In this document: positions 24,093-40,162 of the stretch, piece after piece
Numbering within the stretch: position 1 is the first letter of the stretch
Layout: each line of letters opens with the position of its first letter
DNA from: an uncultured Candidatus Saccharibacteria bacterium
GTDB taxonomy: Bacteria > Patescibacteriota > UBA1384 > 2-12-FULL-50-11
Length of the DNA: 64,000 bases
Assembly (NCBI GenBank): GCA_964599405.1
Contig: CAZRED010000001.1
Span: 75,528 to 139,527 of the forward strand
Direction of reading: 5' to 3'
Notes under the pieces: model-generated
What the model saw: the letters and a program-made list of their open reading frames with translations, nothing else
Databases searched by the model: none
What the model was told of the DNA's origin: nothing
Translations under genes and position numbers: made by a program

Positions 24093-24130
24093 TTCCCAGA
24101 AATTATACTGTAAAGGGAGCTTTACATCAA
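24090..24130 (-). promoter_or_regulatory. dnaJ promoter TTGATG-17-TATAAT-9 nt-ATG with embedded TGTAAAG-N4-CTTTACA palindrome
   Basis: Minus strand: TTGATG (plus 24125-24130), TATAAT (plus 24102-24107). The inverted repeat at 24109-24126 lies in the spacer. Confidence 0.55.
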
Positions 24131-24336
24131 AGTATATACTGCTATATTTTCTTTGCCGTCGGGTCGGGACGTTGGCCTGGAAGCGGGCAATCGTTATAGT
24201 CCTTCGGGACGGCGTAACAGCCTACCGGCCCACGGCACCAAAACACCCCGCAGGTGCGCACATGATAATAACAACCGAACTTTCCGGACGTGGGCACTAC
24301 TGCATTTGTAGCGTACTGCCCCGTTCAGGCGTTCCA

Positions 24337-25011
24337 ATGCTAATGGAGCGCGTAGATAGCCTCCGCCCGGAGATAAAAGAAAAATACGGAGCATGGACGA
24401 AACCGGACTTTGACACTGACCCATGGGGACGAACTGGTCTCGGCGAATCATTTGAATGCTTAGATCGAGACAATAACTCGGAAGAAATTCGACTTGGCTG
24501 GATACCTAGCAAAATCGAAAGAGCGCTTGTGTCGCTGGAGCTTTTAGGATTATGCAACGTCTTCGATCCTGAAAAGAAATCCCGAAAAGAGCGAATGCCT
24601 ACCGAGGCGATCTTGGAAGTCAGTGTCGGTCAAGGCACAAGAGGTTGGCACGTTAACGCTAATCTTGGCGACCCGGTCTGGGAAGTGATTAAAAGCAATT
24701 ACTTCTCGAGCGAGCTAATGCCGATTGTTAGGCAAAGGCTCCGGCGACTCTGGGAGGACTGGTACGGCAGTGACCACCAATACGGGATGTCAAACACTAT
24801 GGTTTTTGACGGTAACTCCGGAAAAGTCCTCCAGATCTACCACCCCGTTGGCAATGGGTTATGGATTGTGGGGAGCCAAGAAGCAACTAACGACTATCAG
24901 CTCATAGACCACAACACAGACAGCTATCGCGATGCCTTTGCCCACATTTACGGACTCTGCGTCGTTCTAGATGAGTGCCGCAAGCACATCGAGAGCTCCA
25001 AAACGACCTAA
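24337..25011 (+). CDS. hypothetical protein (island gene)
   Basis: Start MLMERVDSLRPE...; W/Y-rich, no motif. Terminator follows. Confidence 0.5.
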   Translation: MLMERVDSLRPEIKEKYGAWTKPDFDTDPWGRTGLGESFECLDRDNNSEEIRLGWIPSKIERALVSLELLGLCNVFDPEKKSRKERMPTEAILEVSVGQGTRGWHVNANLGDPVWEVIKSNYFSSELMPIVRQRLRRLWEDWYGSDHQYGMSNTMVFDGNSGKVLQIYHPVGNGLWIVGSQEATNDYQLIDHNTDSYRDAFAHIYGLCVVLDECRKHIESSKTT

Positions 25012-25038
25012 ACCCCGCATCTGCGGGGTTTCTTTTTA
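25011..25038 (+). terminator. rho-independent terminator
   Basis: AACCCCGCAtcTGCGGGGTT then TCTTTTT. Confidence 0.75.
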
Positions 25039-25053
25039 TGCTATTGTGTAGCC

Positions 25054-25281
25054 ATGGAAGAAATTAAAACAGTCAACGTCAACGTTCCGCGCAAAGCAAT
25101 CGTTATCAACAAGTACACCGAGCATTCCGGTGGCTGGACTTACTTTTTAGGATTTTTGGGCACGTTTATCTACTTTGTCCAAGGCGCCAGCACGTTCGGC
25201 GAAGGGTTTATTGGATTTCTGAAGGCCTTGGTTTGGCCGGCCTACGCCGTCTACCACATCTTCAAGTTCTTGGGGATTTAG
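25054..25281 (+). CDS. small membrane protein
   Basis: 75 aa, two hydrophobic helices. Confidence 0.4.
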   Translation: MEEIKTVNVNVPRKAIVINKYTEHSGGWTYFLGFLGTFIYFVQGASTFGEGFIGFLKALVWPAYAVYHIFKFLGI

Positions 25282-25934
25282 TCTTCTTTGTCTTTGAAGA
25301 CGCCGCTGCAGATATCCGGATAATCTTTCTTAAACTGGTCGTCAGAGCGCACGTTGGCCCAAATTTGTTCAATTCGGCGGCGTGATTCGGCGTCAAAGTA
25401 CTCCACCGGGCATAGTCGATCAATTAAGAATGAAGCCGACGAAAATTCCCAGTGGATTTGGCCGGAGCCATCTTCCGGTTTGGGCCGGCCTTCAATAATT
25501 CTATCCCGGCCGGCGTAACCCAATAGTTGGCCTTTCTTAATTTTGGCGAAGCGCTTAATCTCCGGTTCAATGGTGTTTAACTCTTTATAGGTAATTTTGT
25601 AAAAGCCGGAGTAGGTAGTGACATCAATCGAATTAGCGGCGGTTTTCCCGGCCGTGAATATCCAACCGTCAGCGGAAGCGATGATGGCGGTAACGCGCTG
25701 AAAACCAAAATCAATTCCCGGATGTCCGTCGGGATTGCCATTGGCTTCGTTGTGTTCAATTTTCTCACCCATCGGAATTAAGTTAACGGTGGCATCTTCA
25801 GACGCGGCAAAGGGTAGTGATATCTCAACGTGGTTATGCGGCAAGAACGCCCAGGGCTGGAACATAAAGACGGCGGCTAGTAACACGAGCCCCCCAATAA
25901 CCATCCCCGCCCAAACAAGTATCTTCTTAAGCAT
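25278..25934 (-). CDS. membrane-anchored M23-like (LytM) peptidase candidate
   Basis: N-terminal TM; GHPGIDF (HxxxD-like) and IHWEF (HxH-like). Confidence 0.45.
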   Translation of the reverse strand: MLKKILVWAGMVIGGLVLLAAVFMFQPWAFLPHNHVEISLPFAASEDATVNLIPMGEKIEHNEANGNPDGHPGIDFGFQRVTAIIASADGWIFTAGKTAANSIDVTTYSGFYKITYKELNTIEPEIKRFAKIKKGQLLGYAGRDRIIEGRPKPEDGSGQIHWEFSSASFLIDRLCPVEYFDAESRRRIEQIWANVRSDDQFKKDYPDICSGVFKDKED

Positions 25935-26042
25935 GTTTCAATTGTATAGCAATTGGGGCATTGCTTGGTGGTCGGCAAACCGACCGCCATAGAAAAAGTG
26001 CGAAGGGCGGCGGCGCCCTTCGCACTGTGGGGGGGTGGTGGG

Positions 26043-26696
26043 TCAGAAGGAATCAAAACCAAGCTTCTTGAGCTTTTCTTCCGAATCGCTGACACCCGCA
26101 GCCTTCAAGAATACGACCGCATTGTCGTAGGCCTGGAAGTAGAACTTGGGTGTGTTCGTAAACTCCCACTTGTTCTTCCTCCCAGCAATCTGCCGGTAGC
26201 CAATCAGGTGCCCGTAGGTCGCCGACGTTCCGGGTGGAGATAGCTCCACACATGCCTCGCGAAGCTTGGTGATCTCGATGAAAGAGAGACCCTCCTTGAG
26301 AACGATCCCTTTCTCTTCAAGCAATCCGTATATAGCTTTTCGTGAGGCCGGGCTTAGGCCGGGTAGCCTATCGATATCGTCCTTACGACACCTTGCCAGC
26401 TCTGACAGTTTATTCACGCCCAGTTCGACCAGCGGCTTCCATGCCCGTTCTGGCAGACCAGCGGCGCTCAGCACTTCGTCTTCGGCTATCGCCGTAGACT
26501 CTGGGATAGTCGTCTTTTCCGGCGGCGGCACTCCTTTGCACCGGCTAATGATAGATTGTAGCTCGTCCTGTCGGTCTTCCAGCCATTTGATGGTCTTGTC
26601 TAGGTCGCTACGCACCGTTTTGAAATCGAGGATCATCTGGCGATTCAGTTCCCAAGTGTCCGAAGCTATCATGCGTACTTCTTCATCTCTATCCAT
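26043..26696 (-). CDS. helix-hairpin-helix protein with RNAP alpha-CTD-like domain
   Basis: Start MDRDEEVRMIAS with GGAGG 9 nt upstream. VNKLSELARCRKDDIDRLPGLSPASRKAIYGLLEEKGIVL resembles the alpha-CTD HhH. Confidence 0.5.
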   Translation of the reverse strand: MDRDEEVRMIASDTWELNRQMILDFKTVRSDLDKTIKWLEDRQDELQSIISRCKGVPPPEKTTIPESTAIAEDEVLSAAGLPERAWKPLVELGVNKLSELARCRKDDIDRLPGLSPASRKAIYGLLEEKGIVLKEGLSFIEITKLREACVELSPPGTSATYGHLIGYRQIAGRKNKWEFTNTPKFYFQAYDNAVVFLKAAGVSDSEEKLKKLGFDSF

Positions 26697-26697
26697 G

Positions 26698-26760
26698 CTT
26701 AAAGAACCTCCATAAGGGTTGTACGAGCATCGTACTGGAAAATTTTTGCCAGGCAAGGAT
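26698..26760 (-). promoter_or_regulatory. palindrome GTACGAgcaTCGTAC upstream of 26043..26696
   Basis: Perfect 6-bp arms at about 26725-26739. Confidence 0.35.
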
Positions 26761-26853
26761 GGAGCTGGGATTTTTGCCTGTGTGAAACACAATTAGTAAT
26801 AAAAGGGCGCGGATTGGCCGAAGCCGCACCGCGCAATTGTTTGATATTGTCTG

Positions 26854-27498
26854 TTACTCCGGGACGCCCATGGCCAACCGCTGATCAGCGCAGCTCATGG
26901 TGCCGAAAGGAACACGCTTGAAGATCCAGCTCCCCAGCTTGCGAAGCGCCTCCCTGTCCAGATCGCTGATGAGGTCGCCCTTCTTGTCGCTTAAGGAGCG
27001 GGCTTGATGCCTGAGATCGCCTTTAGCGGCCCAGAGGCCAGGGAGATACCAGATCTCCCAGTATTGACCATTGTCGGCCCTTCTTGATCGAAGGCAGACG
27101 AATCCCCAGGATTCCAGCATTGAACAGGCCTCGGCGTATTTCCTCTCTGTCCAATAGTAACCGCAGAGGGACTGGATCATGATGGATGGAGAAGCGTGCT
27201 TGTTCTCCTTGTCAGGACAGACAAACCATGCCTCTTTTGGCTCGCCTGTCTCCTTCCAGTGCGGACCAACCAGCGGGTCGGCCTGGGGAGTGGGCATTGG
27301 CTCGGTTAGCTCGCGCCTGACAAGGCGTCCCTCAACGCAGTCGACACGACACTGTCCAGCGAGCATCGCTTCCAGCATGTCTAGCTCGTTACTGAGCAGA
27401 TTGCCTAGACCCAGCTCACCATCGTTGTCCACTGAAGGCTTCCTACGGGTTACGCGGATTTCTTTCATAAATACCTCAAAGATCGAAGATGGGAACAT
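26854..27498 (-). CDS. hypothetical protein (island gene)
   Basis: W/Y/C-rich; start uncertain (MFPSSIF or MKEIRV); no motif. Confidence 0.45.
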   Translation of the reverse strand: MFPSSIFEVFMKEIRVTRRKPSVDNDGELGLGNLLSNELDMLEAMLAGQCRVDCVEGRLVRRELTEPMPTPQADPLVGPHWKETGEPKEAWFVCPDKENKHASPSIMIQSLCGYYWTERKYAEACSMLESWGFVCLRSRRADNGQYWEIWYLPGLWAAKGDLRHQARSLSDKKGDLISDLDREALRKLGSWIFKRVPFGTMSCADQRLAMGVPE

Positions 27499-27569
27499 TC
27501 TATCAGATGTATCTAGAAAATCCAACGAGTAAATCCCGCTTTTACCTGTGGAAAAGTCAACGAACGGTA

Positions 27570-27600
27570 TAGAAAAAGCGGCGGGTTTCCCCGCCGCCAG
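27570..27600 (-). terminator. rho-independent terminator for 27625..28290
   Basis: Minus strand GGCGGCGGGgaaaCCCGCCGC then TTTTTCT. Confidence 0.75.
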
Positions 27601-27624
27601 TACATTGTTCGCTTAGGACTCGAA

Positions 27625-28290
27625 CTACTCCGCTTTGCGCATGACGACCATGTCGCAAGGGACTTTGATCCCAGTCCTCGATCCCTGCCAGCCGTCACCG
27701 CTCCAGATCGTTTCACCTTCCCAGTGGTGGTTGGGCACGTAGCAAGTGAAGCCTTCGCGGTGGTCATAGACAGCTACTCTCTGGTGAATGCTGCCCGACC
27801 ACTGGTCGGCCATCGCTTGGGGAACGCCGTCGTAGGTGACGACGATGCCCTTCTGGCAAAGTTGTCCGAGTGTGTTGAGCAGACGTTTCAGCCGCTCTGG
27901 CGAGAAGTAATACGTCACGCTGATCAGGACTGCCCAATCAACTCGACTTCCTTCCGCCAACATCGAAACACAGACATCGTCAGCTGGGCCATGATAGTAG
28001 CGGGCGTAAAATCCCCGTCCCATTGTCCAGCGCAGGTTGTTGGCCGAGATGTCGTTGGCGTAACGCTCGCCGTGGCGAGCATGTGCGCAGAGAATGTCGG
28101 CGACCACTCCTGTGGCTGAGCCAATATCTAAAACCGTATCTTGGGCACCGATGAACGGCACCGCCTTGTCTTCGAAGACTTGGTGGAGGTTCACCTTGGC
28201 CAGCTGCAAACGCTGGCAGTACTCCCTGGGGTCATTGTGAAGTGCGAGGACCGCTTGGTCCTCCATATTGAGGGGCCATCCGGTTACCAT
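27625..28290 (-). CDS. class I SAM-dependent methyltransferase (substrate unknown)
   Basis: VLDIGSATGVVADIL motif I; start moved to MVTGWPLNMEDQ directly after the promoter. Confidence 0.6.
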   Translation of the reverse strand: MVTGWPLNMEDQAVLALHNDPREYCQRLQLAKVNLHQVFEDKAVPFIGAQDTVLDIGSATGVVADILCAHARHGERYANDISANNLRWTMGRGFYARYYHGPADDVCVSMLAEGSRVDWAVLISVTYYFSPERLKRLLNTLGQLCQKGIVVTYDGVPQAMADQWSGSIHQRVAVYDHREGFTCYVPNHHWEGETIWSGDGWQGSRTGIKVPCDMVVMRKAE

Positions 28291-28326
28291 GTTGCGATTT
28301 ATACCACATTTCTCGAGAAAAGTCAA
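28288..28326 (-). promoter_or_regulatory. leaderless promoter cassette TTGACT-17-TATAAA-7 nt-ATG with XhoI-centred palindrome
   Basis: Minus strand: TTGACT (plus 28321-28326), TATAAA (plus 28298-28303), ATG at 28290. Palindrome TTTCTCGAGAAA. Confidence 0.6.
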
Positions 28327-28403
28327 GTATTAAAGCCGCAATTTCGCCAATGGAAAATCCAGCAAGAGTGACGGGGTAGCGGAAAATAATAATCACTGTT
28401 ACG

Positions 28404-28901
28404 TTGCGGTTAATGCCACAGAAGCTCGATCAATACCGCGACCCAATCCTGGCTACCAATGAAAAAGTGATCGGTTTTTACGAGCGCGAATTTTATGTTT
28501 TTTCTAATTTCTCTAGTTTCCAGGTGGAGTGGCGGGGACGGCTTTGGCCAACGTCTGAACACGCTTTCCAGGCCGCCCATTTTTTCGACACTGCGCCGGA
28601 GCTGGTTGAACAAATTTTTAATGCCCGTTCCGCCCACGATGCTTTTAAAATCGCTAAAGCCAACGGCGACAAAGCGCCGAAGAATTGGGAAGAAATCAAA
28701 GTTGGGATTATGGAAGATATCTGCCGCCACAAACTCCTGCAACACCCTTACGTCGAAAAGAAGCTCCGCCAAACCAAAGACTGGCCGCTCGTGGAAGACT
28801 CGCCGAGCGATCCTTGCTGGGGTTGGGGTAAAGACCGGAAAGGCCGTAACGAACTCGGCAAGGTTTGGATGCGTCTGCGCGACGAACTCAATAAAAAGTA
28901 A
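28404..28901 (+). CDS. NADAR-domain protein (YbiA/DUF1768-like)
   Basis: FYVFSNFS...WPTSEHAFQAAHFFD NADAR signature; 165 aa. Confidence 0.65.
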   Translation: MRLMPQKLDQYRDPILATNEKVIGFYEREFYVFSNFSSFQVEWRGRLWPTSEHAFQAAHFFDTAPELVEQIFNARSAHDAFKIAKANGDKAPKNWEEIKVGIMEDICRHKLLQHPYVEKKLRQTKDWPLVEDSPSDPCWGWGKDRKGRNELGKVWMRLRDELNKK

Positions 28902-28933
28902 TTTCCAGCGGGTGGATACAATAAGGTGGCGAA

Positions 28934-29341
28934 CTAGCTTTTAGAGTGATGTTCCAACCAGCTGGCAATTTCTGGTAGTGCTACTTGTTTGCTTGCTACT
29001 TTCATCACAAATTGTTCTGCTTCTTGATTGGAAGCTGTCAGCTTAAAACCGTTGATAAATAAAAACCGAGCAACGCTAGCCAAGCCGGTGCGTTTATTGC
29101 CGTCAACGAAGATTTGATACGCCGCAAAACTTTCCAGATAGGTCGCGGCTTTGAGAAAAACTGTCGGGAATTGTTCTTCACCAAATACCGCTGACTTTGG
29201 TCTTTCGGCAGTTGATAGAAATAAGTTCATATCACGGACACCATGAGATCCACCAACTTTTTCGATGATTTGGTGATGGATATACAATATCTCCTCGCCA
29301 GTCAGATAGCGCGCCTGGCGATTACTTTTTGGCAAGCTCAT
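28934..29341 (-). CDS. doc: Doc/Fic-family toxin
   Basis: FVDGNKRTG Fic/Doc motif; start moved to MSLPKSNRQARYL (ORF-track N-extension unlikely). Confidence 0.7.
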   Translation of the reverse strand: MSLPKSNRQARYLTGEEILYIHHQIIEKVGGSHGVRDMNLFLSTAERPKSAVFGEEQFPTVFLKAATYLESFAAYQIFVDGNKRTGLASVARFLFINGFKLTASNQEAEQFVMKVASKQVALPEIASWLEHHSKS

Positions 29342-29531
29342 CAAGTGCCGGTCGGTACTGGTCAATGAACTTATTTGTCCACTCGTGTAGCTCTGGGCTA
29401 ATGACAGTTTTGGCTGGTTTTTTGACGATAACCTCAACCTGGTCGCCCACGGTGACGTTCAGTTTTTTCAGCTCGCTTTTAGGAATAATTACTCCTGTTG
29501 AACTGCCGATCTTGATCAGTTTTTGAGTCAT
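29322..29531 (-). CDS. AbrB/MazE-fold antitoxin (Phd-like partner of Doc)
   Basis: MTQKLIKIGSSTGVIIPKSELKKLNVTVGD; 20-nt overlap with doc. Confidence 0.65.
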   Translation of the reverse strand: MTQKLIKIGSSTGVIIPKSELKKLNVTVGDQVEVIVKKPAKTVISPELHEWTNKFIDQYRPALDELAKK

Positions 29532-29565
29532 GTTTCGATTATAACTTTATAATAATAATCGTCAA
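29529..29565 (-). promoter_or_regulatory. leaderless promoter TTGACG-16-TATAAT-6 nt-ATG for the antitoxin gene
   Basis: Minus strand: TTGACG (plus 29560-29565), TATAAT (plus 29538-29543), ATG at 29531. Confidence 0.55.
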
Positions 29566-29666
29566 TGTGAAAAACTTCCGGCGGGTGGGGTTGAGGTGGA
29601 GGGGTTCATTTTTCGCTGTTTTTCGGTTATACTCTTCGCAACGCACTTTCAATTGGTAAAAAACAA

Positions 29667-30284
29667 ATGGACAGAAAATTCACTCAGACCGAGCTTGAAG
29701 AAGCTTTTCCGGTTTTATTCGGAGAAGTGACGAAGACATTTCACAACAACGCCCAGATCGACAACTGGCCACGCGCTCTGTGGCTGTTTTCATCTATAAT
29801 GATGTTCGCCGCATTTCTCATCTACTTGACTATAGTGCTTACGAAGCCGAATGCGGATATTTGGGATGTTGTCTTGGTTAATGGCACAGGCATTCTCACT
29901 GTATCCAGCTTCTTTTTGTTTCTGTTTGGTGACGAGGACACATCCAGTAAGCACTACCTGGAGCGGAAATACTTGCACCTGGTTGAAGACACCGAAGCAT
30001 ATGATCTTCTTCTGGAAGCGTTGAACAATCGGAAGAAAGGGGTTGTGAGGGGACTTGGTGGCAAGAAGAAAACGGAAGAATATCTGCGCAAGCTCTGGAT
30101 TACGGCGTTCGATGAGGCTAGGTTGCTGGTAGCGGAGCCAATCCTGGGTAAACCCGCAGAACAGCCGATTGCCGATCGCGTCAGGGAGCATCTCCAGCTA
30201 CACGACCAAGCACGCGAACAAGCGATAGACGAGGTTTACAACCGCTCACCGGAGGTTACCGATGACCTGCACCAACAGAACTAG
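29667..30284 (+). CDS. two-TM membrane protein with charged C-terminal domain
   Basis: 205 aa. Confidence 0.5.
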   Translation: MDRKFTQTELEEAFPVLFGEVTKTFHNNAQIDNWPRALWLFSSIMMFAAFLIYLTIVLTKPNADIWDVVLVNGTGILTVSSFFLFLFGDEDTSSKHYLERKYLHLVEDTEAYDLLLEALNNRKKGVVRGLGGKKKTEEYLRKLWITAFDEARLLVAEPILGKPAEQPIADRVREHLQLHDQAREQAIDEVYNRSPEVTDDLHQQN

Positions 30285-30401
30285 ACCTGGACCGCACGAC
30301 CTGAAAAGGTACGGCGGTTTTTTTCTTTTGCCTGTGGAAAAGCCCGCCCTGAGCTTGTCGAAGGGTCAACGGCCAGCGGGTGGGTTCATTATAAAATGTT
30401 T

Positions 30402-30432
30402 AGAGCCGCCCCATCGGGGCGGCTCTGTTTTG
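30402..30432 (+). terminator. rho-independent terminator
   Basis: AGAGCCGCCCCatcGGGGCGGCTCT then GTTTT. Confidence 0.8.
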
Positions 30433-30480
30433 CGCAGGATATTCACATAGGTTTGGATGTAAGCACGGGATCTATCGAGC

Positions 30481-31449
30481 TTAAACGGCTACCTCCTGGA
30501 AATCATGACAGGCAAAGACCTGTGTCTCGCCGTCACGGTTCAGGCAGGTGTCTTGAGCGCAATTTCGAGCGTCGCTCTCAATCGCCTCAATCATCTCGTC
30601 GGTGGCTCGCGGGTCGTGGTGCGTCAGTCCTAAGACTTTCGCTCCAATCTCGCAAGCTGTCCGAACACAGTAGTCTGGTGTGCCATGCCCATAGCCGGCT
30701 GTCTTGGTATTGTAGGTTTCGCGGTCGTACTGCGAATCCATCACCAAGAAATCGGCCTCCTTGAGGTGTGACTTCATTCGGGCAGGCATTTGGTCAAGAT
30801 TCTCGTGATCGGTTAGAAAAACGAAAACCTTACCTGTTGGTCGCTCTTCAAAACGATACGAAATCGTCCGTTCCGGGTGATTGGTGTAGTACATTCGCAC
30901 CACCAAACACTCGGAGATGTTGTAGTGGCCCCCTCTGATCTTGATTTGGCTCGGGGTCTTTCCCTGAACGCCATCAAGCTCCTCAATTGCCACTTTCTTC
31001 ATACCGCCCTCCGGGTGGAACACCAGGACAACAGCAGATGGAACTGTGATTCGGATCGGCCGAAATCGCTGCGCGATTTCGGTGAAGTTGACTGGGTGAA
31101 ACGGGGTGCGCATAACGTACTCGAAAGCCTTGCGAGGATCGTAACCCTCCTCGACCGGTCCGTAGACGTTAAAGCGCATCGATGGCGAGTAGATTGCTGG
31201 ACACAGCAGGAGCCCTTGAGTGTGATCGTGATGATAGTGAGTCATCAACAGATGTGTCTCGGTGATCTTTTCCTTAAGCAGCTGGTCTCCGAGTGGAAAC
31301 AAGCCGCTACCGGCATCAATCACGAGGGCGTTGTCCAGCGGTAGACATTGCGACTCAACCCGCAAGCAGGTGGTGTTACCACCGTACTTGAGAAAGTCTT
31401 GGCCGCTAACGGGGATTGAACCCCTGGTTCCGTAGAAGGTGATCTTCAT
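30481..31449 (-). CDS. MBL-fold metallo-hydrolase
   Basis: THYHHDH metal-binding motif; 322 aa; GGAG SD. Confidence 0.7.
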   Translation of the reverse strand: MKITFYGTRGSIPVSGQDFLKYGGNTTCLRVESQCLPLDNALVIDAGSGLFPLGDQLLKEKITETHLLMTHYHHDHTQGLLLCPAIYSPSMRFNVYGPVEEGYDPRKAFEYVMRTPFHPVNFTEIAQRFRPIRITVPSAVVLVFHPEGGMKKVAIEELDGVQGKTPSQIKIRGGHYNISECLVVRMYYTNHPERTISYRFEERPTGKVFVFLTDHENLDQMPARMKSHLKEADFLVMDSQYDRETYNTKTAGYGHGTPDYCVRTACEIGAKVLGLTHHDPRATDEMIEAIESDARNCAQDTCLNRDGETQVFACHDFQEVAV

Positions 31450-31582
31450 GGTTTTCTCCGTCGCGTCTTACAGCAACCAAAGAGCCATGTGAAGGTGCGC
31501 AATTCGCCGCAAGTATATACCTTAAAAACAGGAATAACTATGAAAACTTACAAAAATAACGACGGGTGGGGTTGAAGTATAG

Positions 31583-31610
31583 AAAAAGCGGCGGGGAAAA
31601 CCCGCCGCAA
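31583..31610 (-). terminator. rho-independent terminator for 31630..32016
   Basis: Minus strand GCGGCGGGttttCCCCGCCGC then TTTTTCT. Confidence 0.75.
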
Positions 31611-31629
31611 TTCGAATGCTGCCTGCAGT

Positions 31630-32126: not shown

Positions 32127-32141
32127 TCTCTCGTCACTTAG

Positions 32142-32375: not shown

Positions 32376-32390
32376 AGCAACTTCTTGAAC

Positions 32391-32425: not shown

Positions 32426-32445
32426 TAAAAAAGCCAATCTCACAG

Positions 32446-32465
32446 ATATACGTTAAAACATATAC
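32446..32465. promoter_or_regulatory. variant copy of ATATACGTTTAAACATATAT palindrome
   Basis: ATATACGTTAAAACATATAC. Confidence 0.45.
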
Positions 32466-32525
32466 GAGGGGTTAGAAGATAAAGTAAAAACCGTGAATGA
32501 CCCATACGCCCGGGTTGTTCGTCTT

Positions 32526-33305: not shown

Positions 33306-33484
33306 CGCCCCTCCTCCATTTATTTAACGATACCGCAATCCGCCAACGCAACAAGCAATATCAAACCAAACGCTAGGCAGGGAGTGGAATTTCTCTTTAG
33401 TTAGTTGGTTAGTTCGGGTTTTTCTTCTATGTGTTTGTCAGTAGTCATTATGGTGTTCTAGCAGTATTAGCGAAGCGTCAGAGT

Positions 33485-34000
33485 TAGAAAGTTAGTTATA
33501 TATTTATAAAGAACTCCCCTTTTTCCATTTCCATACCTTAAAGATAGTCATATTTTGGTGCAACTGCTGCACCAGTTCAAAGCCGGGGTTACAAAGCTTA
33601 GTTATATATTTATAGAGACTCCACTTTGGCGATTGTACTTACCTGTTAGAGCGATCTTTTTTGTCTCAGCTGCTGAGACGTTTTGTTAGATGAAACTAAT
33701 GAGTACTAAGTGGTGTAGATATGTATAGAAAGTGTAGTGATTTTTATTGATGAAGCTGTGAATGTCTTGGAAGTGGTATCAGGCCGGATGTTTCTTAGTA
33801 TATATATTAATAAAGACTCTACTTTTTCTTTCAGTTAACCAGGAAATTGAACGAATTTAGGAGCAACAGCTGCTCTTTTTGGGTAGCGAAGCCGAACATT
33901 AGCAGGGGGTCAGTAATATATATAAAGAGTAGTGAATTTTGTTTACTAAACCTGCAAAGATCGGCTTTTCGGTATCAGGCCTGATACCGGTGTCTCCAGG
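33485..34000 (+). repeat. tandem array of 5 degenerate ~105-bp units, each with AT-rich TATAAAG box and downstream hairpin
   Basis: TATA(A/G)AG boxes at 33505, 33611, 33723, 33809, 33921. Hairpins 50-52 nt downstream: GGTGCAactgcTGCACC (33557), GTCTCAGCtgcTGAGAC+GTTTTG (33663), GAGCAacagcTGCTC+TTTTTG (33859), GGTATCAGGccTGATACC (33972). Confidence 0.6.
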
Positions 34001-34153
34001 TAATTAATTGGCGTGCAGTGACGGTATACTTACGAAATAAATCGCTACTCCAACCGCCGCCAGAATTATCGCTACCCACCAAACTGGATTCATGGTTTTA
34101 GTTTAGCAAAAACGGTAGTACCCAACGAATAATCGCTTGTATAGTGGAAGAGT

Positions 34154-35884
34154 CTACGTAGTATCAGTAAAACATACGTTGTAGATCTCGTCGCCCAAAT
34201 CTTTCCAATGACTAGATTTATAATTGAAGGTTTCCGTGGAGAAATCTATTTTTCCAGAAAGTTTACTAAAGCCCTTATCATAGTAAGCGAAGCCATTCAC
34301 CTTATTATTCTCGATCAATATACGCATACAATGAATCAAGCCAGTAATCGTAGTCACGGTCAGCGCTCGGCTAACCTTCTGCTTAGTGGTCCACATATCG
34401 TTCGGTATTTGGTTCTTGAATGCTTTAAGAAACTCATTTATTTCTTTAGTGCAAAATTCTACGTATTCATTTAATAGGGCAGTATCTTTACCGTCTCTAA
34501 GCTCACTCTTTTTCCCTTCACTCCAAACATTAAAAAGCGTGTCCTTCCCTGAAAGCTTAACTACGTGCCTTACTCCGTAGGAAACTATAGATGTTGTTTT
34601 TAGCTTACCCTTGTCGAAAAAGTGTCTTTCGAGAACTTTATCCATTGGGTCAAGCTCAGCAAGTTTATTCATTACCTTCTTGGCTATAGATACCTCGTCG
34701 AACGGATTTACTATTGTATTAATTACTTGACGGAGAGACCCACTGGTTCTTGTCTGTCTATCATTAATTTCTAAAAATAGCTTCGCTTCAAACCTTCCTC
34801 GGTCTTCGAGAGATAGGTCGCTAGGGAAGACAATACCCGTAATCAAAAGGTGCTGCTTATCTCTTAAACTACTAATGTGCGTGTCATGTGCATCATCACC
34901 TTCATGGTATGAAAATACCCTATGTTGTCCGTCGATAATCCCAATGTTCCCGGCAACCTTTGGGATCCTAATTTTTATAGGATCCTTCATTACCCCTGTA
35001 CTTATTGGGAGATTTATCCGGTCGTTACTTTCATACTCAAGAAGTTGTAAGTCATTAGGTAAAGAGACGATGATATTATTTACGAATACCCGACCCTCAC
35101 TAGCAAGGTACTTACGCATATTACGTATTTTGTTACCGAGGATAATTCTTTGATAAACAAAGTCACTATCTTGCCAACCATCCCTTCTCAGTACATAAGC
35201 TTGCTTTAATAAGGTGTTTGGGTCAATTAGAAAAGATACCAGGTTATGCCCACTTGGAAAGCCACTCGGAGTTTCTGGAAGAATAAGGCCAACATAATCA
35301 TCCCCCGGAGAGCCGCTATTCTGTGGCCCTATCTCCTCAAATCCAACCCCGATAAATTTAAATAGTTCGAATCTTGCAGATCTTTTAATCGTTTTTGAGA
35401 GGCTTAAGAAATAACTACGTGACTTGTAATCCATAAAATGAAGGTGCTGATAACGATCTCTAAGTGACTGAGTTACCTCTTCGTGCGAAACATATAAGAA
35501 TGCTAACTTAATATCATGACTAGCGTAGCCCGCGGTAGAATTTTTCCCGTAATTTGGGATTTTGCTCTTAAAAAGCTCAATTAAGTCATTTTGGTTGTTC
35601 TTGCAGTTAGTAAAGAACTCAGCTTTCTTCCGAAGGTGATCAGTATCACTTGTTGTAGTATCCTCTACGATAAGAATAAGGTTCTCGAAAACAAAAACAT
35701 TATCTAGATCGCTTTCTTGTCCACATAGATTAATTTTAAAGTCTTCGGCGACTGCCATAAATCCCATATTGCTAAAGGTAGTGCGTACGTCCCTTCTAAT
35801 TTTTCTCTTAAGGCCTAATCTTTCACTGTCTGATAGGTTAGGCATATTATTTATTGTCTTGATGCATAATTCTCTTATACCCAA
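34154..35884 (-). CDS. DGQHR-domain (DndB-like, ParB/Srx fold) protein
   Basis: GIIDGQHRV at aa 318-322, codons verified at 34919-34933. 576 aa with about 220 aa N-terminal domain of unknown function. Overlaps upstream MTase stop. Confidence 0.7.
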   Translation of the reverse strand: MGIRELCIKTINNMPNLSDSERLGLKRKIRRDVRTTFSNMGFMAVAEDFKINLCGQESDLDNVFVFENLILIVEDTTTSDTDHLRKKAEFFTNCKNNQNDLIELFKSKIPNYGKNSTAGYASHDIKLAFLYVSHEEVTQSLRDRYQHLHFMDYKSRSYFLSLSKTIKRSARFELFKFIGVGFEEIGPQNSGSPGDDYVGLILPETPSGFPSGHNLVSFLIDPNTLLKQAYVLRRDGWQDSDFVYQRIILGNKIRNMRKYLASEGRVFVNNIIVSLPNDLQLLEYESNDRINLPISTGVMKDPIKIRIPKVAGNIGIIDGQHRVFSYHEGDDAHDTHISSLRDKQHLLITGIVFPSDLSLEDRGRFEAKLFLEINDRQTRTSGSLRQVINTIVNPFDEVSIAKKVMNKLAELDPMDKVLERHFFDKGKLKTTSIVSYGVRHVVKLSGKDTLFNVWSEGKKSELRDGKDTALLNEYVEFCTKEINEFLKAFKNQIPNDMWTTKQKVSRALTVTTITGLIHCMRILIENNKVNGFAYYDKGFSKLSGKIDFSTETFNYKSSHWKDLGDEIYNVCFTDTT

Positions 35885-36770
35885 ACTTCAAATATTTTTT
35901 ATTAAGCTCTGCCCCCACTGAGTTTCTGCCCTGCTTTTCGGCAGCGACAGAGGTAGTAAACGTACCAGCGAAGGGGTCGAAAATCGTATCTCCCTTATTG
36001 CTACTCACTTTTATAAAGAGCTCTAGCAAATTCAGTGGCAGTTGGCATGGATGGTCTTTCTCCTTCAGCTCGCCCGGCTCCATGGACCGAAACTTATTTC
36101 CAAGGTTCCGAACTCGATCCTTGGAATTATTCTTCATCATGTGCATATCTATAGTATCGATTAGGCCATCTTGTAGCTCTATCAGATCAAGGAACCTTAA
36201 TAAGTCGTATGAGGTTCTGCCCTTAGATCCTTCTGCGATACGTTTCCGTACTACTGGCGCGGTTGGATTTTTATAGTGCTGTACTAAATTTTCTCTATTG
36301 AAGACATAGCCCTTCGTTGACTTAGTAAAAAATAAAACAGACCTCTGGCTTCGCGTATAATTATTTTTTGAATGCCCAATATTTGTGGGGTAGTGCCATG
36401 TAATCCATCTCCGGTAATTAAGACCTAGCTCATCTTGAAGATAGGGCAGAAGGCGGGCATTAATCTCGGGGTAACTAATTAGGTAGAAGCTCCCCTTGTC
36501 ACTTAAGATTCTTGGGATATCGCGCAATTTGGCTTCTAGCCAGGCATAATACTCCTTCCAGGACTTGGAGTCGTCAAAGCTACCATAGTCGAGCCCCATA
36601 TTGTAGGGAGGATCCGTAATAATGAGGTCTATACTTTTACTAGGGATCTGACTGATTATCTGTTCGCAATCACCTAGCACGAGGATGTGTCCTGTTTTTT
36701 CTTTCTCAATAAAGTCAAAGGCAAAGCCTTGCTTGCTTATAGGTTTGAGGATAGATTTTATATTCCTCAT
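35847..36770 (-). CDS. DNA methyltransferase (beta class, DPPY; N4-C or N6-A)
   Basis: LIITDPPYNMG motif IV, N6_N4_Mtase-like; 307 aa. Confidence 0.75.
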   Translation of the reverse strand: MRNIKSILKPISKQGFAFDFIEKEKTGHILVLGDCEQIISQIPSKSIDLIITDPPYNMGLDYGSFDDSKSWKEYYAWLEAKLRDIPRILSDKGSFYLISYPEINARLLPYLQDELGLNYRRWITWHYPTNIGHSKNNYTRSQRSVLFFTKSTKGYVFNRENLVQHYKNPTAPVVRKRIAEGSKGRTSYDLLRFLDLIELQDGLIDTIDMHMMKNNSKDRVRNLGNKFRSMEPGELKEKDHPCQLPLNLLELFIKVSSNKGDTIFDPFAGTFTTSVAAEKQGRNSVGAELNKKYLKFGYKRIMHQDNK

Positions 36771-36807
36771 AAGCCTATTCTATACAAATATTCTCGAAAA
36801 GAAGTGA

Positions 36808-37899
36808 CTATTTTTTGCCTTTGCGGCGGTTATCGTCGCGGCAGAGCATTTGGCAGTTATCGGCATTAGTTTTTCCGCCCTCAACCCACGGCGTAATGTG
36901 GTCGGCTTCCATTTCTTCAATCTCAAAATGTTTACCACAATCCGGACAAACACCTTTCTGTCGTTCAAAGGCCTCGCGTTTCATGTTATCGGTAAACGCC
37001 CGAATATTTAGACACTTTTCTTCACGGGTTAGAACATATTCATAGATACCGGACTTTTTTGTTACGTCTTCGTCCATCATCAACTGTGTAACTTCCGCTT
37101 CCAGCTTGTCGGTATCGAACTTATCGTCCTTAAATTGATTGTAAAATCTGCCCCAATCCAAACCTTTCATTTCTTTTCGATACTTCGGAAAAGTCAGACG
37201 TGTCCAGCTTATAACATTTTGGAAGTACGACCAAAGCTCATTGGCATTTTGGTCGTGTTGGTGCTTGGCCATGTAGTCTTCTATTTTTCCGTCGTTAATC
37301 CAAGCTAGCGTAGTTTCCAGTATCTCTTGCCGAATTGGCGAACCGTTCACTAGCTGCCCGCCATCGCTAGCTAGCAAATAAGCTGCACAGTTAGATTTGC
37401 TGAATTTCAGTTTGGCGTCACTTAGCCATGGTCCAGTATAAATCGCATTGCGGAGCTCTTGGTCGGTTAATTTTTCGCCAGCGATGTTAATGATTCTGAA
37501 CCAATCCAGTCTTTCTTTGTCGGTGCCTTCGCACCAGTAAATCATCAGCTCATAGTCCTGAATTTGCTTCTGTTCCTCATCAGTTAGGTTGTGGAAAAAG
37601 CGATCTTTGAGCGAAAAATCACCGTTGACATATTGCCCAATACTTATTGTTCGTTGCTGGCCGTCCATAACTTCAAAGTTCCCTTGGTCGGTTTTGACCC
37701 AATACATTACGTTCAGCGGAAAACCATTTTTAATCGTTTCTATTACTGCGTCGCGCTGCTTGTCTTTATAAACAAATTCACGTTGGTATCTTGGGCGGAT
37801 GTCGAGTTTACCACCGTAAGCTATGACGCCTTCCTCGGCGCTGTCTTTGTAGCCGACGATCACTTCTCGAACAGGAATTCGTTGTAGTTCAATTTTCAT
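36808..37899 (-). CDS. DUF262 (DGQQR NTPase-like, ParB fold) + HNH endonuclease; SspE/GmrSD-like
   Basis: VMDGQQRTISIGQY (codons verified at 37651-37665). C-terminal CPDCGKHF...ADHITPW...NADNCQMLCRDDNRRKG HNH. Confidence 0.75.
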   Translation of the reverse strand: MKIELQRIPVREVIVGYKDSAEEGVIAYGGKLDIRPRYQREFVYKDKQRDAVIETIKNGFPLNVMYWVKTDQGNFEVMDGQQRTISIGQYVNGDFSLKDRFFHNLTDEEQKQIQDYELMIYWCEGTDKERLDWFRIINIAGEKLTDQELRNAIYTGPWLSDAKLKFSKSNCAAYLLASDGGQLVNGSPIRQEILETTLAWINDGKIEDYMAKHQHDQNANELWSYFQNVISWTRLTFPKYRKEMKGLDWGRFYNQFKDDKFDTDKLEAEVTQLMMDEDVTKKSGIYEYVLTREEKCLNIRAFTDNMKREAFERQKGVCPDCGKHFEIEEMEADHITPWVEGGKTNADNCQMLCRDDNRRKGKK

Positions 37900-38983
37900 T
37901 TTGTGTCCTTTTCCTTTGCTTAATTATTATTCTTGCGTATGTCGCTTTGCCGTTGATGATAGCGCCTACATATTTTTTATGCTGTTCATCAAGATATGTT
38001 GGATTCCCTTGTATTAACGAGTCTGACTTCTCTCTCTTGTCTGCAAATAAGCCAATAATTTCAAACTGTTGGGGGTTATATTTATCTAGAAAAGTAATCG
38101 GAACACCCATTGCACCATTCCAATCCATAGGTACGTCTGCAAACTTAGAAACCTCTATCGCATCATAATTGTCGTATTTTGGATATTCTTCAGGCGTGTA
38201 TTTTTTATACAAGTCTACCTCCTCGTGACGCTTGGTGGTGTCAAGGTTTGTGAACCATACTATGCTTCCCATACTGATGTATTTGATGCCATTCTCGATT
38301 TTCTTTCTTGATTCGGTCGGGATATCGTAATCATCAGGAACTTGGAACCACTTTGTGCCACCATTATCATATCCAAGCCACATTTTATTTTCTTTAATAA
38401 GTTTGAAGGTCTCTTTATACGTGATGGCATTCTGGTTACCAAGAATCAAAAACTTTTTATCATATTCCATAAGCTGCGCCACATACTCGCGAAACAATGA
38501 AAACGGCGGGTTTGTCACTACGATATCGGCTTCTTTGAGCAGCTCTATACACTCATGACTTCTAAAATCACCGTTGCCTTGTAAGGACGATGAAGTATTT
38601 TTAGTGTGCTTTATAAGATTCTGAACATCACCCAAATCTACAGCGCCATCACCATCACTGTCAGGCACTTCGTTTACTTCGACTTTAAATGGTTGCTTAC
38701 CATCTGGCTTTAGACCCTCCATCTCGAAGATTGGCAACTGCGTTCCAGCAATAGGCGATTTAGTGTAGCTGGTGGCGATAAGTTTTTTTAAGCCCAAATG
38801 GTTAAAGCTGCTCGCAAAATACTTGAAAAAATTACTCTCATACGGATCGTCACAATTACAAAAAACAACCTTGCTGCGGAATTGATCTTTGTATCGCGTT
38901 AACTCTTTTTCGATATCAGCACGTTGTGTGTAAAACTCGTCCTTTTTCTGCAACTTTGCTGTATGTAAATTATTCTGCGCCAT
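37889..38983 (-). CDS. N6-adenine DNA methyltransferase (NPPF motif)
   Basis: IVVTNPPFSLF motif IV; 364 aa; TAATG coupling with upstream small ORF. Confidence 0.7.
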   Translation of the reverse strand: MAQNNLHTAKLQKKDEFYTQRADIEKELTRYKDQFRSKVVFCNCDDPYESNFFKYFASSFNHLGLKKLIATSYTKSPIAGTQLPIFEMEGLKPDGKQPFKVEVNEVPDSDGDGAVDLGDVQNLIKHTKNTSSSLQGNGDFRSHECIELLKEADIVVTNPPFSLFREYVAQLMEYDKKFLILGNQNAITYKETFKLIKENKMWLGYDNGGTKWFQVPDDYDIPTESRKKIENGIKYISMGSIVWFTNLDTTKRHEEVDLYKKYTPEEYPKYDNYDAIEVSKFADVPMDWNGAMGVPITFLDKYNPQQFEIIGLFADKREKSDSLIQGNPTYLDEQHKKYVGAIINGKATYARIIIKQRKRTQNEN

Positions 38984-39252
38984 TAAATTAGCCGGGTGTT
39001 TTTGAGCTTTGCTAGGTAGCTAAAGTCATCTTCTGATATTTTGGGCACAACATTGAACGTTATTTTCGTTTTTGATGTGTCGCTTATTGCACCGCCTAAT
39101 ACTACAAAGTATTTTATCTCTCCCTTAGCTTCTTTTGTTGATTCAACTTCTACCTCAACTTTTATCGCACCCCAAACTACACCGTTCTTAAGATTATTGA
39201 TAAGTTCGTTGGTGAGATTCTCAATGTAAGATGAAAGCTCAACTTTCTCCAT
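38983..39252 (-). CDS. small operon-leading protein of unknown function
   Basis: 89 aa; its stop overlaps the MTase start (TAATG). Confidence 0.45.
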   Translation of the reverse strand: MEKVELSSYIENLTNELINNLKNGVVWGAIKVEVEVESTKEAKGEIKYFVVLGGAISDTSKTKITFNVVPKISEDDFSYLAKLKNTRLI

Positions 39253-39289
39253 TTGCCAAATTCTACTCTTTTTAACCTGAAAAAGCCAG

Positions 39290-39330
39290 GTTTGGGGAAC
39301 AACCCACCCCGGGTGGGTTGTTCAGGGGCT
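39290..39330 (-). terminator. tandem hairpins between HEPN-like gene and defense operon (attenuator/terminator)
   Basis: CAACCCACCccgGGTGGGTTG and AACCTGgctttttCAGGTT. Confidence 0.4.
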
Positions 39331-39408
39331 ATGGTCGCGCGGGACAGATTTGGTCACGGTAGATCGGGTAAATCAACTAATAACATTCTTGCATATGGAA
39401 GGGATTAA

Positions 39409-40131
39409 TTATCTTTTTTTGAATTTTTTACAATTGCAACCATCCGTTAAGCATTCTACAAAAAGAATATTTTTCCCCTTCATTACGAAATGAGCAGCTT
39501 TTGCATGACCGCAGTCACAGATAGCAAACAGACCCTTTTTCCTGCCGAATTCTACTACTTCCTCATTAGATACAACACCATAAGTTTTCGCGAAACTTCT
39601 TTCACTTCTAGAATTAATCTTCTTTGATGCGAGATATTCAACTTTTACCTCTATGCCGTTATCTATCCTGCTCTTTGTCATTCCGTAACCAGTAGCAACT
39701 TGTTTGTCTTCCAATGATTTATTTATCTTATTTAACTCTTGAAAAATCTTTTCGTACCGTGAACATGCCAAACCAAGATGGGAATACTCTATTTCGCTAG
39801 TAAAAAACCTGTGGATTGCCTTATTCCTGACATCATAGAGTTTATTCAGCTCGTCATATATTGATCGGGTGATAATTTTTTTCTCATATGCTAATTGATA
39901 AATTATCCTCTCTGACAAGTAATCGTTTCCTTCTTGAAAAATATATTTCTCAGTAATTCTGTTGGTTTTTTCTTCTAGCTGTTGCTCTAAAACTAGACAA
40001 ATCCGACACTGTGCTTCGACTAGAGAAGAATACAATACCAACCCCTCTATTAACGAGCCATTATCATAAGCCTTATTGAGCAGTAACCTTGTTGCAGCAA
40101 ATGCGGAAATAAAGTTTTCTAACTTTTTCAT
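39409..40131 (-). CDS. HEPN-like (Rx4H) protein with C-terminal Cys-rich zinc ribbon
   Basis: DVRNKAIHR Rx4H motif; C-terminal CDCGH...CLTDGCNC; 240 aa. Starts 23 nt after the dnaK stop. Confidence 0.45.
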   Translation of the reverse strand: MKKLENFISAFAATRLLLNKAYDNGSLIEGLVLYSSLVEAQCRICLVLEQQLEEKTNRITEKYIFQEGNDYLSERIIYQLAYEKKIITRSIYDELNKLYDVRNKAIHRFFTSEIEYSHLGLACSRYEKIFQELNKINKSLEDKQVATGYGMTKSRIDNGIEVKVEYLASKKINSRSERSFAKTYGVVSNEEVVEFGRKKGLFAICDCGHAKAAHFVMKGKNILFVECLTDGCNCKKFKKR

Positions 40132-40142
40132 TTACCCAAGAG

Positions 40143-40162
40143 AAAGAGAGCTGGTTAGCTCT
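40143..40162 (-). terminator. weak hairpin overlapping dnaK stop (partial terminator, read-through likely)
   Basis: AGAGAGCTggttAGCTCTCT followed on the minus strand by TTCTCTT then ATG of the HEPN-like gene. Confidence 0.35.

Follow-up and report, generated by a model that had tools for sequence, protein, structure and literature searches.

How does a pair of heat-shock genes that is normally co-transcribed come to lie 16 kb apart, with about 20 other genes between its two members? The question is raised by an uncultured Candidatus Saccharibacteria bacterium of the Patescibacteria (contig CAZRED010000001.1), of which a stretch of 64,000 nucleotides (nt), here called the window, was analysed. 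On its minus strand the order is grpE, an opposite-strand open reading frame (ORF), dnaK, 16,062 bp of other genes and a short dnaJ-like gene. The original prediction for this locus, in which the order and the coordinates agree with ours, took the interval for an accessory island inserted precisely between dnaK and dnaJ. It is true that lineage-specific accessory DNA stands here between two genes that most bacteria keep side by side or close together, but a precise insertion in one or two events does not describe it. Instead, we consider it likely that the dnaK-dnaJ interval is a core-gene-flanked, integrase-free variable hotspot that exists throughout a Berkelbacteria-like clade, and that its cargo was built up as small, self-contained cassettes were gained, lost and replaced on many separate occasions.

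Organization of the dnaK-dnaJ Interval

The interval is bounded by the stop codon of dnaK (40155) and the start of dnaJ (24092), and its anchors and two variable slots are as follows.

42854-43384, minus strand: grpE
42275-42841, plus strand: opposite-strand ORF between grpE and dnaK
40155-42107, minus strand: dnaK, 650 aa (HSP70 by Pfam), the left conserved anchor
40141-40168, minus strand: dnaK terminator hairpin, a 12-bp stem overlapping the stop codon and followed by a T-rich tail (folds at -12.1 kcal/mol, z -4.4)
25935-40131: cargo of slot A, 14.2 kb
25278-25934, minus strand: M23 peptidase (Pfam), part of the right anchor of slot A
25054-25281, plus strand: divergent 75-aa membrane ORF, part of the right anchor
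24172-25011, plus strand: cargo of slot B, an ORF of 224-279 aa between the 75-aa gene and dnaJ, unique to the present genome
24102-24130, minus strand: dnaJ's own promoter, TTGATG-17-TATAAT, containing TGTAAAG-N4-CTTTACA (24109-24126)
23487-24092, minus strand: dnaJ-like gene (Pfam DnaJ 6.7e-24, DnaJ_C 1.3e-13), the outer right anchor

Both predicted ends hold. The TAA stop of dnaK occupies 40155-40157, and 23 nt (40132-40154) separate it from the next ATG of that strand, at 40131, so that variable DNA begins directly past the terminator hairpin; at the other end, the interval closes with the dnaJ promoter. DnaK is 82-86% identical in amino acid sequence to the DnaK proteins of Patescibacteria metagenome-assembled genomes (MAGs) labelled Berkelbacteria or unclassified. 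The dnaJ-like product is a short form of 201 aa, with a J domain, a G/F region and the distal half of the C-terminal domain and without a zinc finger; a short form of 200-207 aa is present in all of the close relatives as well.

Conserved Flanks and a Variable Slot in Relatives

Loci of other genomes and contigs that were compared with the window are given L-numbers. Across 80 dnaK loci from many phyla, the gap from dnaK to dnaJ is mostly 36-1500 bp, and the Berkelbacteria-like clade has the two genes separated in every case. A hairpin equivalent to the dnaK terminator follows dnaK in all of the relatives. Both flanks, that is, dnaK with its terminator on one side and the M23, 75-aa and dnaJ genes on the other, are kept in L001, L004, L086, L088 and L095-L101, while L002 reaches the M23 gene and L102 the 75-aa ORF, each at a contig end. 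The M23 gene (75-86% amino acid identity) and the 75-aa ORF (63-68%) adjoin dnaJ in L001, L004, L087, L088 and L095-L102, and M23 is also present in L002 and L086. Because they are conserved beside dnaJ in every close relative, these two genes (25054-25934) are ancestral and not cargo, and the inclusion of M23 among the island genes has to be withdrawn. The ancestral layout is thus grpE, dnaK, terminator, slot A, M23, 75-aa gene, slot B, dnaJ.

What lies in slot A differs from relative to relative.

L095-L102: 0.64 kb ("empty"), a single gene, for a zinc-ribbon-like protein of 70 aa, in which 24 contigs from several samples agree
L088: about 1 kb, small ORFs
L002: 1.8 kb, unrelated ORFs
L004: 2 kb, a HEPN gene first
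L001: 2.6 kb, unrelated ORFs
L086: about 5 kb, HNH, a 221-aa ORF, a restriction-modification (R-M) pair and HicAB
L003, after dnaK: >10 kb, EEP nuclease, GmrSD, RadC, HsdM, HsdS and a Fic protein
L053, after dnaK: >10 kb, a complete type I R-M system
L005, after dnaK: >10 kb, HNH-WYL, PIN and PD-(D/E)XK proteins

Slot B, in turn, holds nothing, a metallophosphoesterase, three small genes, four minus-strand genes including one of the YbjQ family, or a pair of 909 aa and 158 aa. By a plain count, defence-type genes (R-M, type IV restriction, HEPN, toxin-antitoxin (TA) or nuclease genes) stand directly after dnaK in about six of ten cases: the window, L086, L004, L003, L005 and L053. None of the genes in the slots of relatives was found anywhere in the window, and synteny by tblastn indicates that dnaK and the M23/75-aa/dnaJ group are conserved and the rest of the interval is not. 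No relatives were found to carry the same genes with uniform composition; the genes in common are M23 and the 75-aa gene (all relatives) and a restriction endonuclease (REase) shared with the closest relative, L086, only. Within the L095 species the slot did not vary in 24 contigs, and a metagenome scan with an M23 alignment returned three distant loci only, which left the slot unresolved. The idea of an insertion into an adjacent gene pair is thus not supported: throughout the clade, dnaK and dnaJ were already separate and individually promoted, and the slot between them has different cargo in about 10 relatives, including the empty version of 640 bp.

Mosaic Relationship with the Closest Relative

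A comparison with L086 shows how the cargo has changed over a short distance. The DnaJ proteins are 93.5% identical and the M23 proteins 86%. The L086 contig holds only the last 28 nt on the dnaK side, and these, comprising the dnaK end and terminator, are identical in 28 of 28 positions (L086 1-28). The order shared by the two loci is dnaK terminator, a hairpin with a promoter, a DUF262-HNH nuclease, a gene for a small peptide, M23 and dnaJ. The hairpin (39297-39323) is conserved with compensatory changes in its stem; the nuclease is 90% identical in amino acids and 81.7% in nt, which is comparable to M23 (83.5% nt) and dnaJ (88% nt); and the start of the 29-aa peptide gene has 85% nt identity to L086 3860-3939.

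Between these points the two genomes have different genes. A 240-aa ORF, i17, is wedged between the dnaK terminator and the hairpin, which are adjacent in L086. A Trypco2-like ORF in the window stands where L086 has HNH and the 221-aa ORF. The methyltransferase (MTase) that precedes the nuclease is only 53% identical to its L086 counterpart (36808-38983 compared with L086 1188-3244), whereas it is 72.5% identical to that of a viral contig, L105. Farther on, a pair consisting of an N6_N4 MTase and a DGQHR protein occupies the place of HicB/HicA, and about 8 kb with 13 genes in the window correspond to one 151-aa ORF in L086. Because the anchors are common to L086 and the cassettes between them differ, the nuclease core is probably ancestral, with cassettes having been added, replaced or lost around it. 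Judged from these alignments, the nuclease, the hairpin and the 29-aa peptide gene were probably in the slot already in the common ancestor with L086, and i17, the MTase allele and the MTase-DGQHR pair are gains or replacements relative to L086.

Composition of the Interval

The guanine-plus-cytosine (GC) content of 33306-40154 is 0.399, compared with a mean of 0.497 (standard deviation 0.016) in 6.85-kb windows outside the island (z = -6.3), and the change is abrupt both at 40.15 kb and at about 33.4 kb (33350-33400), just upstream of the heliorhodopsin start. The genes of this block have a GC content at third codon positions (GC3) of 0.34-0.48, compared with 0.53-0.66 in neighbouring host genes. 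The remainder, 24093-33305, is normal in GC (0.505). However, the tetranucleotide profile deviates from that of the background in two places, 26-28 kb (r 0.28) and 30-32 kb (r 0.38), while 24-26 and 28-30 kb are not atypical in composition; the GC-normal half is therefore not uniform, and the interval contains at least four compositional classes. The original prediction was accordingly right about the AT-rich part and about there having been more than one acquisition event, but the 24-33 kb part is host-like in GC only and not in its tetranucleotides. In sum, the AT-rich 6.8 kb consist of two widely mobile two-gene R-M modules, a HEPN-like gene and small ORFs, and the GC-normal 7.4 kb of genes for heliorhodopsin, a metallo-beta-lactamase (MBL)-fold hydrolase, a MazE-Doc pair, a NADAR protein and other ORFs.

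Origin of the Cargo

Given these findings, could most of the interval simply have been inherited vertically, with relatives having lost the genes by streamlining? Several observations fit such an ancestral arrangement. The heliorhodopsin homologues decay in identity as those of core genes do (90, 87, 78 and 75%, then hundreds at 63-70% and thousands overall), and the named ones are from Patescibacteria except for one Caldiserica and one unclassified bacterium MAG, most rows being without a name. Furthermore, the divergence of the REase from L086 is core-like, the GC content of 24-33 kb is that of the host, and the M23 and heliorhodopsin genes of L085, a distant relative, are separated by 3.3 kb. 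However, none of the 13 GC-normal cargo genes occurs in slot A of the seven relatives with a resolved slot, and heliorhodopsin lies in unrelated neighbourhoods in relatives, with homology ending at the gene ends. In addition, the low GC3 of the AT-rich genes and the atypical tetranucleotides at 26-28 and 30-32 kb are not those of the host, and plasmids and viral contigs of unrelated phyla carry the R-M modules as well. An ancestral origin for most of the interval is consequently unlikely, and the GC-normal cargo genes would come from a gene pool of Patescibacteria.

A second possibility is a classical genomic island of about 16 kb, inserted site-specifically between adjacent dnaK and dnaJ genes in one or two steps. 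The sharp ends of the cargo, 23 nt past the dnaK stop and at the dnaJ promoter, the foreign composition of the AT-rich 6.8 kb, and the position of dnaJ 36-400 bp after dnaK in more distant Patescibacteria are what such an event would leave. However, the presence of M23 and the 75-aa gene inside the "island," beside dnaJ in all close relatives, already contradicts that part of it. There is no recombinase or transposase domain, and hence, in agreement with the original prediction, no integrase, in any island ORF or in 10 flanking ORFs tested; there is no tRNA inside the interval, the nearest being at 19730-19802, outside; and a check for direct repeats, which had been proposed, yielded nothing but 16-25-mers at chance level in coding sequence, both for the two ends of the interval and for those of the AT-rich block. 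Different cargo in the same slot of each relative, the existence of an empty version, the four anchor points that the AT-rich block has in common with L086 with different cassettes between them, and the several compositional classes also speak against it, and we regard a classical island as very unlikely.

Finally, a mis-join of foreign contigs between dnaK and dnaJ during assembly or binning, for which one could cite the MAG source, the exact M23 protein on a 326-kb NCBI contig and the abrupt GC changes, is extremely improbable, since an independent Logan assembly (run SRR6868922) is 100% identical over 19742-42864, spanning both junctions and the internal GC switch, which are thus consistently assembled, and since a single contig from a different sample (L086) independently runs from the dnaK terminator through the hairpin, R-M pair and peptide gene to M23 and dnaJ. 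The Logan assembly, found by exact-protein look-ups, is the same organism and not a second strain.

Taken together, these results favour a variable hotspot between conserved core genes. In such a model, DNA would probably enter by uptake (comEC adjoins grpE) and would probably be fixed either by homologous recombination, for which the conserved flanks or the shared promoter and terminator modules would serve as substrates, or by illegitimate recombination; the R-M modules may then persist through defence and addiction. Several points weigh against this model or limit it. The 10-kb flanks of L003, L005 and L053 end before M23/dnaJ, so that the defence genes there may lie either in the same slot or next to a rearranged dnaK. 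The sole other assembly of the species is identical and neither dates nor directly shows any individual gain. A close relative has the 90% heliorhodopsin homologue on an unplaced contig of 1.8 kb, and some of the GC-normal cargo could be of older date, with relatives having lost it. In addition, the recombination step is one that we infer, and the putative defence function of the R-M modules is taken from homology.

The AT-Rich Block

The block next to dnaK (33306-40154) contains the following, in order from dnaK.

39409-40131, minus strand: 240-aa ORF (i17) with a weak HEPN-like region (HEPN_RiboL-PSP E 0.012, below the cut-off) and a Cys-rich C-terminus
39297-39323, minus strand: hairpin with a 12-bp stem (GAACAACCCACC/GGTGGGTTGTTC; -14 kcal/mol, z -3.5), followed by the R-M operon promoter
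38983-39252, minus strand: 89-aa ORF, weakly Trypco2-like (Pfam E 2.7e-4, below the cut-off)
36808-38983, minus strand: R-M module 1, in which the MTase and REase genes overlap by 11 nt
37889-38983, minus strand: EcoRI-family adenine MTase of module 1 (Pfam EcoRI_methylase 5e-146; PADLOC MTase_II, PDLC03297, 5e-129)
36808-37899, minus strand: DUF262(ParB-like)+HNH restriction enzyme of module 1 (PADLOC REase_II, PDLC03418, 5e-144, full length)
34154-36770, minus strand: R-M-like module 2, missing from L086
35847-36770, minus strand: N6_N4 DNA MTase of module 2 (Pfam 5e-45)
34154-35884, minus strand: DGQHR/DndB-like protein of module 2, 563-576 aa (DndB 3e-5, below the cut-off, and DpdB 3e-8, both weak)
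34004-34093, minus strand: ORF for a 29-aa hydrophobic peptide (MNPVWWVAIILAAVGVAIYFVSIPSLHAN), read directly from the sequence
33306-34003, minus strand: AT-rich, ORF-free spacer that closes the block, with five copies of a 21-25-nt motif (...AGTCTYTATAAATATATAACTAA...)

The two MTases predicted for this part are thus confirmed by Pfam and PADLOC, each within a two-gene module. The genes of module 1 are adjacent and co-oriented. The same pair, adjacent and in the same order, is present in 25 of 25 recovered IMG/VR contigs (GC 0.28-0.64) and also on plasmids of Bacteroidota, Bacillota and Pseudomonadota. Of the two proteins, it is the nuclease that is better conserved in 22 of the 25 viral contigs (the exceptions are L125, L129 and, clearly so, L114). 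The adjacent pair of module 2 recurs on plasmids of Phyllobacterium and Rhizobium, at 33-36% identity over 93% of the length. An assignment of module 2 to a Dnd or Dpd system was considered and rejected, as there are no other dnd or dpd genes and the partner is an N6_N4 MTase, as on the rhizobial plasmids. By homology, the restriction modules probably act in defence against phage or other DNA, and they may be self-stabilising.

The ORF next to dnaK, i17, has the lowest GC in the island (0.349) and is missing from L086. The 29-aa peptide ORF could be a gene for a small membrane protein or one resembling a type I toxin. In the spacer, the motif copies are about 100-200 nt apart, and there are also three small hairpins centred on GCAGCWG; all five copies of the motif fall within 33306-34153 (850 bp). 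One possibility is that these motifs and hairpins represent promoters in tandem, or genes for small RNAs, lying upstream of the heliorhodopsin gene. An Rfam scan of 22-44 kb gave two sub-threshold chance matches only and nothing for the repeat-rich spacer, and Tandem Repeats Finder (TRF) detected no tandem array in it. Scans of viral contigs with i04 (an ORF of the GC-normal half), the DGQHR protein and i17 gave no matches, and PDB sequence searches with the DGQHR protein, i04 and i03 (likewise of the GC-normal half) gave nothing useful except for a weak similarity to the C-terminal domain of the RNA polymerase alpha subunit (alpha-CTD).

The GC-Normal Half

The remaining cargo of slot A is listed in order toward M23.

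32526-33305, minus strand: heliorhodopsin, a single-gene cassette of the Patescibacteria type (PF18761 E 1.2e-93, positions 1-242 of 242)
32142-32375, plus strand: Cys-rich ORF of 77 aa, with a promoter (11/12, 32098-32126) and a terminator (32391-32412) of its own
31577-32083, minus strand: cassette i10, with a 77-nt promoter module (32007-32083) and a 128-aa ORF (31630-32016)
30481-31449, minus strand: MBL-fold hydrolase, 322 aa (Lactamase_B_2 2.6e-12), atypical in tetranucleotide usage (r 0.38)
29667-30284, plus strand: 205-aa membrane protein
29322-29531, minus strand: antitoxin of the MazE/AbrB type, 69 aa (E 1.3e-6), upstream of the Doc/Fic toxin
28934-29341/29437, minus strand: Doc/Fic toxin (Doc/Fic domain 7.7e-15)
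28404-28901, plus strand: NADAR-domain protein (Pfam 3.4e-28)
27567-28357, minus strand: cassette MT, with a 77-nt promoter module (28281-28357), a 213-aa ORF weakly resembling S-adenosylmethionine (SAM)-dependent MTases (27625-28266) and a terminator (27567-27598)
26854-27468/27525, minus strand: ORF i04
26043-26696/26792, minus strand: ORF i03, with a weak alpha-CTD-like stretch (E 0.007)

The gene inventory of the original prediction is borne out by Pfam for the M23, NADAR, Fic/Doc, MBL and heliorhodopsin genes. In contrast, what had been called a Phd/Doc pair has a 69-aa upstream gene of the MazE/AbrB type and is a Doc-family TA system with a non-Phd antitoxin, and the SAM-MTase-like ORF matches at E 1.4e-3 only, below the Pfam cut-off. 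The i10 ORF is supported by a gene call in L081. The segment containing i03 and i04 (26043-27525) is GC-rich with atypical tetranucleotides, and in L087 a protein with a weak RNA_pol_A_CTD match lies directly after dnaJ.

Nearly every gene of this half has its own promoter and terminator, and the cassettes occur in both orientations; the MazE/AbrB-Doc pair (28934-29531), for example, has the promoter TTGACG-16-TATAAT. The 77-nt promoter module consists of TTGACT-N17-TATATT with a palindrome, TTTCTCGAGAAA, in the spacer, and its two copies (28281-28357 and 32007-32083), which are 78% identical, precede the MT-like gene and the 128-aa gene. The listed TTG starts (MTFLEK...) at 28306-28326 and 32032-32052 are the TTGACT -35 box of this repeated promoter, and hence artefacts; the true starts of both MTFLEK... 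ORFs are near 28266 and 32016. The MT and i10 cassettes also end in an identical 19-nt terminator tail (27567-27585 and 31577-31595), the i10 terminator (31577-31608) carrying it as CCCGCCGCTTTTTCTATAC. A 19-nt upstream motif is present in three to four copies in the island. As predicted, the repeated motifs are specific to the island: the 77-nt module, the 19-nt upstream motif, the 19-nt tail and the AT-rich 21-25-nt motif appear 0-0.04 times in shuffled sequences and nowhere else in the window.

Other short sequences recur at boundaries. Four promoters or orphan junctions have a TTTTCCACAGGCAAAA-type site on their upstream side, and i03 and i04 are each preceded by such a motif; the site recurs in L086 and L091, and elsewhere, in 1.6 Mb of other loci, there is one chance match with two mismatches, in L078. 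The motif AACCC(C)ACCCG is present at four intergenic sites. The count of the AACCCACCCG motif in the window is not above chance (6 vs 4.2 expected), and only its clustering at intergenic sites of the island, L086 and L091 stands out. The AACCCACCCG copies were also considered as attC-like sites, but only one of four forms a hairpin.

These shared sequences have led to a further hypothesis, in which the slot after the dnaK terminator is a clade-wide, recombinase-independent site of cassette exchange, with integron-like shuffling in the absence of an integrase. The exchanged units would be those that carry near-identical promoter modules (TTGACT-N17-TATATT with its palindrome), the upstream TTTTCCACAGGCAAAA site, AACCC(C)ACCCG boundaries and, in some cases, identical terminator tails; they would be swapped among Patescibacteria by uptake and by recombination on the shared modules. 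The cassettes might then form an island-specific regulon, possibly read by the alpha-CTD-like protein of the island. We consider this hypothesis tentative and rather doubtful. If true, however, it could explain a flexible gene pool in ultra-small genomes.

Promoters and Regulation of dnaK and dnaJ

If other genes may come and go between dnaK and dnaJ, how is the expression of the chaperones maintained? The palindrome in the dnaJ promoter, TGTAAAG-N4-CTTTACA, is also present in the dnaK promoter (42202-42219), and in both cases it is placed between the -35 and -10 boxes. There are exactly two copies in the 64-kb window, compared with 0.08 expected by chance. The palindrome is found upstream of dnaK in L001-L005, L088 and L095-L101 and, exactly or with one to three mismatches, upstream of dnaJ in L086, L087, L095 and L004; on the dnaJ promoter side, the nt identity to L086 is 88% through 24136. 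A CIRCE element was looked for at this locus and not found. The palindrome is a candidate for the heat-shock operator of the clade, and dnaK and dnaJ are separately transcribed, apparently co-regulated units. With separate promoters sharing the palindrome, transcription of any DNA that enters downstream of the dnaK terminator and upstream of the dnaJ promoter is insulated from that of the two chaperone genes, whose expression would be undisturbed.

Comparison with Known Systems

Many hotspots that are flanked by core genes lack an integrase. The chromosomal organization of horizontal gene transfer (HGT) was reportedly treated by Oliveira et al. in 2017, and core defence hotspots of E. coli and Pseudomonas aeruginosa are said to have been described in 2022-2023. 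The dnaK-dnaJ interval resembles such HGT and defence hotspots in its conserved core flanks, in cargo that differs in each genome, in the existence of an empty variant and, by the plain count given above, in its enrichment for restriction, TA and HEPN-type genes. It differs from them in that the flanks are heat-shock genes, the host has a Patescibacteria genome of the 1-Mb class, the cargo mixes defence genes with heliorhodopsin and metabolic genes, and cassettes share promoter and terminator modules. In the literature searched, there was no paper that ties dnaK/dnaJ to a defence hotspot. The novelty lies in the location, which splits dnaK from dnaJ, in its recurrence across a clade of a candidate phylum, and in the shared modules; the kind of hotspot itself is well known.

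Module 1 resembles other type II R-M cassettes composed of an EcoRI-family MTase and a DUF262/HNH enzyme in its strong, full-length profile matches and in the adjacency and MTase-then-REase order seen on plasmids and viral contigs. It differs from the mobile cassettes in being chromosomal, within the block next to dnaK, and in having exchanged its MTase allele, but not its nuclease, relative to the closest relative; its specificity and activity are putative. With integron arrays, the cargo has in common small, individually mobile gene units and short recurring boundary sequences. An integron was nevertheless rejected, since there is no intI and no attC-like hairpin at each boundary, and the cassettes, found in either orientation, come with promoters and terminators of their own. 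A classical integrative island was rejected as well, there being no recombinase, no att repeats and no tRNA insertion; in composition, the interval is atypical in parts.

Genomic islands of Patescibacteria, including R-M islands, have been described, with transfer mostly within the phylum and with competence and uptake proposed as a route (PMC12455944, mSystems 2025). These islands were predicted by composition (IslandViewer) in single MAGs, and a recurrent syntenic slot or a location at dnaK is not described (PMC12455944).

Other Variable Sites in the Window

Variation is not confined to the interval. A 195-aa membrane ORF (22829-23416) between dnaJ and a topoisomerase IB gene is absent in L001 and L095, and the topoisomerase IB gene itself (21601-22656) is absent in L004 and L088, so that there are further variable slots outside the interval. 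On the other side, the opposite-strand ORF upstream of dnaK (42275-42841, plus strand) has no homologue in any relative, L088 has a different opposite-strand ORF of 178 aa in its place, and the grpE-dnaK gap varies from 77 to 786 bp. At 46000-54900 there is a cluster of glycosyltransferase, sugar kinase, GH130 and GalT genes with a GC of 0.44-0.47 and a tetranucleotide r of 0.55-0.63, which is probably a second variable (surface polysaccharide) region. Finally, a gene for a 78-aa protein with a GIY-YIG nuclease domain (20033-20269, plus strand) adjoins the tRNA-Lys gene (19730-19802).

Implications

The locus reveals neither a new kind of element nor a new defence mechanism. Patescibacteria have genomes of about 1 Mb, which are thought to leave little space for accessory genes, and a single slot, reused across the clade, may account for about 2% of such a genome. 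This slot holds most of the recognisable defence genes of the window together with a light sensor, heliorhodopsin. Furthermore, the locus shows that dnaK and dnaJ, an operon in textbooks, can exist as two co-regulated units between which insertions are tolerated. The stretch from the dnaK terminator to M23/dnaJ provides an alignable locus in which gene flux and the turnover of defence genes can be tracked in uncultured Berkelbacteria-like populations.

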